The translations under genes and the position numbers were made by a program. Positions 40,138 through 40,593 of a stretch of DNA of 64,000 bases are shown here, in pieces. Numbering within the stretch: the stretch's first letter is position 1; the number at the start of each line of letters is the position of its first letter. The DNA lies in sequence record OL615012. One strand, written 5' to 3'. The stretch comes from Shigella phage vB_SboM_Phaginator. The notes beneath the pieces are model-generated. The model saw nothing but the letters and a program-made list of their open reading frames with translations, ran no database searches and was not told where the DNA came from.

Positions 40138-40593
40138 TTATTTTAAATCATCTGCCCAATCAAGTTTAAGAGGCTCTTTATATTCACGGTCAAGTACAAC
40201 CGGAATTTGTACATCACCGCTAAATGATAAGGGCCCAACATTATAAGACAATGTTATATGCGGTGTGTAATCATCAAAATCATGTGTAGCACCTAGTGCC
40301 CGCGCATACATGTGTCGACAGCGCAGATATTCAGAATCTAGCACAAGTACAAGAGTCGATCCATCTTGTGTTTTCCATACTTCTAAATGTCCAGAAGAAG
40401 CTACTTCAAAACTTCCGCTTGATGGAACATATGGAACATTTACTCTTGAATAACATATGGTCGAATGAATTTTTTCTCTAGGAACTGGATTAGGAACACG
40501 TAAAGAGCGCTGGAGTTCTTCCAGCGCATCAAGTGTTAATTCTGAAAACTTAGCTGCTACATAAAGACCCGTTGAAAAGTCTTTAAATTCCAT
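40138..40593 (-). CDS. 57B: 2H-phosphoesterase-fold protein at the T4 57B position (Acb1 anti-CBASS nuclease candidate)
   Basis: 151 aa; paired H-x-T/S motifs (HSTICYS, HITLSY); position immediately upstream of 57A; identity recalled from T4, not searched. Confidence 0.75.

Follow-up and report, generated by a model that had tools for sequence, protein, structure and literature searches.

The minus-strand gene at positions 40138-40593 of the window, i.e. the whole stretch of 64,000 nucleotides from Shigella phage vB_SboM_Phaginator (sequence record OL615012) that was analysed here, is identified from its sequence, with a probability of about 97%, as the acb1 gene (T4 gene 57B) of a T4-like Tequatrovirus, which codes for an already known anti-CBASS 2H phosphoesterase. 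The ORF listing contained one ATG-started ORF of 151 amino acids in this interval, in agreement with the coordinates and length given in the initial annotation, which had put the gene forward as an Acb1 candidate. In a direct comparison with the T4 reference genome (NC_000866), the encoded protein was identical to residues 2-152 of T4 gp57B (NP_049750.1), the founder of the Acb1 family, at 151 of 151 positions, and a tblastn search with the product found 1470 phage records with a match, of which 498 reached an identity of at least 99%. Given this complete identity to T4 gp57B and the 1470 matching phage records, the ORF is real, far beyond chance. The acb1 coding sequences of the window and T4 differ at 10 nucleotides, with 10 synonymous and 0 non-synonymous changes, a pattern that indicates purifying selection on a functional gene. 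The coordinates of the gene, its motifs and the neighbouring features are given in Table 1.

Assignment to the Acb1 family was obtained with Pfam, in which the protein matched PF23474 (Anti-CBASS protein Acb1) over the entire profile (1-144/144) with an E-value of 2.6e-60 and a score of 202.7 bits, where the gathering cutoff is 27 bits; this was the sole Pfam family found on the protein at E ≤ 0.1. The NCBIfam scan, a collection that holds no model for Acb1, returned no family. The H-x-[ST] motif occurs exactly twice in the product, as HST (residues 43-45) and as HIT (residues 112-114), which lie within the segments HSTICYS and HITLSY that the initial annotation had singled out. The residues H43, T45, H112 and T114 were invariant, at identities as low as 30%, in an alignment of 10 homologues that represented Tequatrovirus, Jiaodavirus, Muldoonvirus, Krischvirus, Tulanevirus, Lazarusvirus, Pseudotevenvirus, Schizotequatrovirus and a Salicola jumbo phage. 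The alignment to T4 Acb1 that had been suggested as a check on the candidate thus gave the maximal similarity, with both histidine motifs kept. The base-stacking residues Y11, W73, F106 and W146 and the adenine-reading E140 were all found, each at the T4 position minus one, so that 9 of the 9 published functional residues of T4 Acb1 are kept, and the C terminus (...KLDWADDLK) is the same as that of T4 and retains the lid.

A search of PDB sequences aligned residues 8-148 with Acb1 of Erwinia phage FBB1 (7T26/7T27) at an E-value of 4.1e-62, with 96 of the 141 aligned residues identical (68.1%). A single-sequence AlphaFold2 model of the 151-residue protein (pLDDT 37.9, pTM 0.30) was too poor for a fold search; the 2H phosphoesterase fold is strongly implied by the crystal structure 7T26, whose sequence is 68% identical across 141 residues.

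Table 1. Features of the acb1 region and the basis on which each was assigned
Feature	Coordinates	Strand	Basis
ipI, internal protein I (precursor of IPI*)	39778..40065	minus	Pfam IPI_T4 (PF11634), E=5.4e-52, profile 1-76/76
Hairpin, stem drawn with 14 pairs, directly past the acb1 stop	40085..40116	minus	Inverted repeat; RNA fold -15.5 kcal/mol, z=-3.0
acb1 (gene 57B) CDS, putative anti-CBASS 2H phosphodiesterase	40138..40593	minus	151 aa plus stop, ATG to TAA; identity to T4 gp57B
C-terminal lid, residues 144-151 (T4 145-152), W146 included	40141..40164	minus	Same sequence as T4
Second catalytic motif, H112-I113-T114 (T4 H113/T115)	40252..40260	minus	Translation and homologue alignment
First catalytic motif, H43-S44-T45 (T4 H44/T46)	40459..40467	minus	Translation and homologue alignment
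Gene 57A, tail-fibre assembly chaperone	40593..40835	minus	Pfam GP57, E=1.7e-49; TAA stop shares one base with acb1 ATG
Gene 1, dNMP kinase, first of the 1-57A-acb1 run	40835..41548	minus	Pfam DNMK, E=4.8e-104
Late-promoter-like TATAAATA inside gene 1, upstream of 57A-acb1	41191..41198	minus	Pattern match only
MotA-box-like AATGCTTCA, candidate middle promoter for 1-57A-acb1	41591..41599	minus	Pattern match only, ~45 nt upstream of gene 1

The function of the gene in T4, which the initial annotation had named correctly, was established by activity-guided fractionation, in which gene 57B was found to account for the 3'3'-cGAMP-degrading activity of infected cells. In that work H44 of T4 Acb1 was shown to be catalytic and an H44A/H113A mutant was inactive; the structure displayed a 2H phosphoesterase fold whose U-shaped pocket accommodates cyclic di- and trinucleotides; the bases are stacked against Y12, W74, F107 and W147, the adenine N6 is contacted by E141, and the lid that shuts over the ligand is made up of residues 145-152. 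Treatment with Acb1 blocked the activation of the effectors Cap5, CapV and Cap4, cA4 was not cleaved, and a T4 acb1 deletion mutant was made (Hobbs et al. 2022, PMC9117128). Transposon sequencing by HIDEN-SEQ has found 57B/acb1 to be dispensable on E. coli K-12 and depleted on a CBASS-expressing host. Because the sequences are identical, the published biochemistry of T4 Acb1 should apply to the window protein, and both its enzymology and its phenotype are here carried over from T4 by analogy.

On this basis, the window Acb1 would have a U-shaped pocket in which it binds immune signals of the cyclic di- and trinucleotide type, with the bases expected to stack on Y11, W73, F106 and W146, E140 to read an adenine and the C-terminal lid to close over the ligand. 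The H43/T45/H112/T114 tetrad would carry out metal-independent acid-base catalysis, in which the adenosine 2'-OH is predicted to attack the 3'-5' bond and give a cyclic-phosphate intermediate and subsequently a linear 3'-phosphate product, e.g. GpAp. The loss of 3'3'-cGAMP, cUA, cAAA/cA3 and related signals would leave Cap5, CapV and Cap4 inactive, and with the CBASS effectors kept off the phage would escape abortive infection.

The range of messengers removed may be wider than those of CBASS. It is possible, at well below even odds, that the enzyme acts as a broad eraser of several messengers, including the type III CRISPR messenger cA3, 2'3'-c-di-AMP and other CD-NTase products, with CBASS as one target among them. 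The structural group to which T4 Acb1 belongs acts on a broad set of messengers (CD-NTase, regulatory and type III CRISPR), and Acb1 degrades cA3. T4 Acb1 also consumes 2'3'-c-di-AMP and, on plasmid-borne expression, activates the Panoptes system; type II Panoptes restricts phages whose acb1 is intact, and these escape through acb1 mutations, and a lid-less T4 Acb1 no longer triggers Panoptes, which its authors read as a sign that catalysis requires the lid. However, cA4 is spared, CBASS evasion is the phenotype that has so far been demonstrated in vivo, and a broad eraser would extend the anti-CBASS explanation through the same mechanism and family rather than replace it.

The cost of Acb1 is that its activity can be detected by Panoptes guard systems. 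By analogy with T4, an intact acb1 would predict resistance to CBASS signalling by adenine-containing cyclic di- and trinucleotides and, at the same time, sensitivity to Panoptes-type guard systems, and acb1 status may be useful in host-range prediction and in the choice of phages. The identification opens no new biology; its main value lies in correct annotation, as many records still describe acb1 as a 'hypothetical protein' or an 'RNA ligase'.

The 2H superfamily includes LigT and the tRNA-splicing cyclic phosphodiesterases, and a role directed at RNA can be considered in two forms. The first is an additional role alongside signal erasing, e.g. the opening of the 2',3'-cyclic phosphates that cleaved tRNAs or mRNAs carry, which we regard as improbable; it is suggested by two pointers only, namely the superfamily and the gene's conserved place, with the 1-57A module on one side and the tRNA region on the other. 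The second, a still less probable reading, would instead make the protein an enzyme of RNA ligation or repair, of the LigT or 2'-5' RNA ligase type, with a part in tRNA repair suggested by the nine-gene tRNA cluster that lies ~2 kb downstream of acb1. The label of PHROG 755 is 'RNA ligase', and RefSeq gives T4 and related genes that name, but the name was transferred at the superfamily level and not derived from an experiment. Activity-guided fractionation identified the identical T4 protein as the cGAMP degrader of infected cells, and the pocket of the crystal structure fits cyclic di- and trinucleotides (Hobbs 2022, PMC9117128). Neither LigT nor 2_5_RNA_ligase was present on the window protein among Pfam families at E ≤ 0.1; with Acb1 as the only Pfam match, no LigT-type family and a blank NCBIfam scan, the 'RNA ligase' annotation was rejected.

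The window and T4 genes differ at the 57A/acb1 junction (40593-40595, minus), where a DNA alignment reads GAAGA-ATG-ATG-GAA in T4 and GAAGA-ATA-ATG-GAA in the window. T4 has an ATGATG double start, with the TGA stop of 57A overlapping the first ATG (ATGA), whereas in the window phage the 57A stop is TAA, within a TAATG overlap, and acb1 starts at T4's second ATG. The window Acb1 is therefore 151 residues long and the annotated T4 protein 152, since the first ATG of T4 is ATA in the window. Both lengths are annotated among the acb1 database records. A more modest proposal than a second, RNA-directed role is that the loss of the first ATG and the altered overlap may change the dosage of Acb1, thus tuning CBASS evasion against the triggering of Panoptes. 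The missing ATG, together with the acb1 disruptions known in some Tevenvirinae and in Panoptes escapers, could also suggest that the copy is inactive or decaying, like the acb1 of phage Bas43 with its nonsense mutation, but this has almost no probability and a Bas43-like disrupted allele was rejected, as the frame is intact from ATG to TAA without any amino-acid change from T4, the second ATG is part of the TAATG in which acb1 overlaps the end of 57A, and the protein is at least 99% identical in ~498 phage records.

The order 3-1-57A-57B-ipI in the window was the same as in T4, on the same strand, and the homologue of trna.4 (PHROG 1692) follows past ipI. The 24-kb stretch around acb1 aligned with many Tequatrovirus genomes at ~96% identity, covering 92-95% of its length, and the 1.2-kb acb1 region matched 673 phage records. 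These matches place the window in a T4-like enterobacterial phage other than T4. Published PCR primers for the acb1 region of Bas35 matched the window at 39659-39680 and 40924-40947 (0 and 1 mismatches, respectively), bracketing acb1.

As there is zero intergenic space between them, 57A and acb1 must share a transcript, and the TAATG overlap suggests that their translation is coupled. Expression of T4 57B has been reported as middle/late. Transcription of acb1 together with gene 1 and 57A probably proceeds from candidate middle and late promoters, the matches to AATGCTTCA and TATAAATA being consistent with this timing. A generic scan for sigma-70 promoters and terminators gave 14 sites compared with 9.2 +/- 3.3 in shuffled sequence, i.e. 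no enrichment, and the promoter assignments are for this reason to be read as pattern matches only. Downstream, acb1 and ipI are separated by a promoter-like element and a hairpin; the element, GTTTACA...TACTAT, resembles an early promoter, lies before ipI at 40124-40096 (minus) and is overlapped by the hairpin at 40085-40116.

The initial annotation had further described positions 39778-40593 as an anti-defence islet formed by acb1 and ipI. The adjacency is correct and the window IPI is 98% identical to T4 IPI (93 of 95 residues), but the islet is a weak concept, for among T4-like genera acb1 is linked to 57A and gene 1 and not to ipI, and in the window the promoter-like element and the hairpin lie between the two genes. 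The Pfam description of IPI_T4 is 'Nuclease inhibitor from bacteriophage T4', and IPI* is known to inhibit the GmrSD type IV restriction enzyme, so that two anti-defence genes do lie next to each other. In seven other genera of Straboviridae the linkage 3-1-57A-acb1 was conserved, and the genes downstream of acb1 were variable, small and nearly all hypothetical, with none annotated as ipI. A conserved acb1-ipI anti-defence island was rejected on account of this variable downstream neighbour. In Edwardsiella phage PEi20, ipI lies beside 57B, and in the distant Salicola phage the acb1-57A linkage was absent. The pairing of acb1 with ipI is characteristic of Tequatrovirus and closer relatives of this genus and not a conserved module, and acb1 is better described as lying where a conserved module borders on a hypervariable region than in a dedicated island.

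Several further differences from T4 were observed in and around ipI. The window IPI carries A84V and H86Q near its C terminus, where several nearby codons also differ, while the adjoining acb1 is without amino-acid change; these C-terminal changes could reflect diversifying pressure from GmrSD-type enzymes. The spacer past ipI shows an arrangement similar to that before it, with a hairpin at 39735-39766 (minus; RNA fold -17.4 kcal/mol, z=-4.8), so that on both flanks of ipI a GTTTACA (-35-like) sequence is followed by a hairpin with a stem of 11-14 bp that covers a -10-like hexamer. These flanking elements could serve as combined transcript-end hairpins and early promoters. In comparison with T4, the spacer between ipI and trna.4 (39767-39777) lacks ~16 nt (AATATTTCACAAAGTT) upstream of the GTTTACA element, and its hairpin sequence is wholly unlike that of T4 between nearly identical flanking genes, by which we infer a small mosaic replacement of a regulatory spacer.

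The tRNA region nearby was likewise different from that of T4. ARAGORN predicted nine tRNAs at 36837-38242 (minus), i.e. Arg, Asn, Tyr, Met(CAT), Thr, Ser, Gly, Leu and Gln, and found no tRNA-Pro, whereas the T4 cluster comprises Arg, Ile, Thr, Ser, Pro, Gly, Leu and Gln. The 'Met' tRNA with anticodon CAT may be an Ile (lysidine) tRNA. An ORF of 216 amino acids at 37348-37998 (minus), with Pfam matches to GIY-YIG (E=6e-6), a SegE-type family (1e-5) and NUMOD3 (6e-4), looks like a Seg-like homing endonuclease gene inserted between tRNA-Ser and tRNA-Gly; in T4, segB is situated between tRNA-Arg and tRNA-Ile, and tRNA-Pro fills the gap between Ser and Gly. Another ORF of 171 amino acids at 38329-38844 (minus), between the tRNA cluster and the trna.2 homologue, had no Pfam match and has no counterpart in the T4 annotation, where tRNA-Gln adjoins trna.2.

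Among known systems, T4 acb1 is the nearest, occupying the same slot (1-57A-57B-ipI) and having the same catalytic and ligand-contacting residues. Acb1 of FBB1 (PDB 7T26, apo; 7T27, with 3'3'-cGAMP) shares the HxT/HxT tetrad and the C-terminal lid with the window protein and provides the structural template for the mechanism; it comes from another phage and host, has a one-residue indel in the loop after W73 and differs by substitution at ~32% of residues. The 2H enzyme PDE-9 (PDB 9Q2G/9Q2Y, deposited as 'Anti-CBASS protein Acb1') has weak alignable similarity to the window protein (E=0.004). PDE-9 and T4 Acb1 belong to one structural group of viral 2H phosphodiesterases and both act efficiently on 3'3'-cGAMP, but the lid of PDE-9 is at the N terminus and that of T4 Acb1 at the C terminus, and PDE-9 spares 2'3'-c-di-AMP and leaves Panoptes untriggered, whereas T4 Acb1 triggers it (bioRxiv 10.1101/2025.08.21.671373).

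The anti-Pycsar nuclease Apyc1 and the sponge Acb2 (T4 Vs.4) share with Acb1 the strategy of removing host cyclic-nucleotide immune signals, and neither is homologous to it: Apyc1 is a Zn-dependent enzyme with a metallo-beta-lactamase fold and acts on cyclic mononucleotides (PMC9117128), while Acb2 sequesters the signals without cleavage. The cellular 2H phosphoesterases (LigT/2'-5' RNA ligase and CPDase) have, like Acb1, two HxT/S motifs and a metal-independent cyclic-phosphate chemistry; the window Acb1 differs from them in having no Pfam match to these families at E ≤ 0.1 and in a pocket specialised for cyclic di- and trinucleotides.
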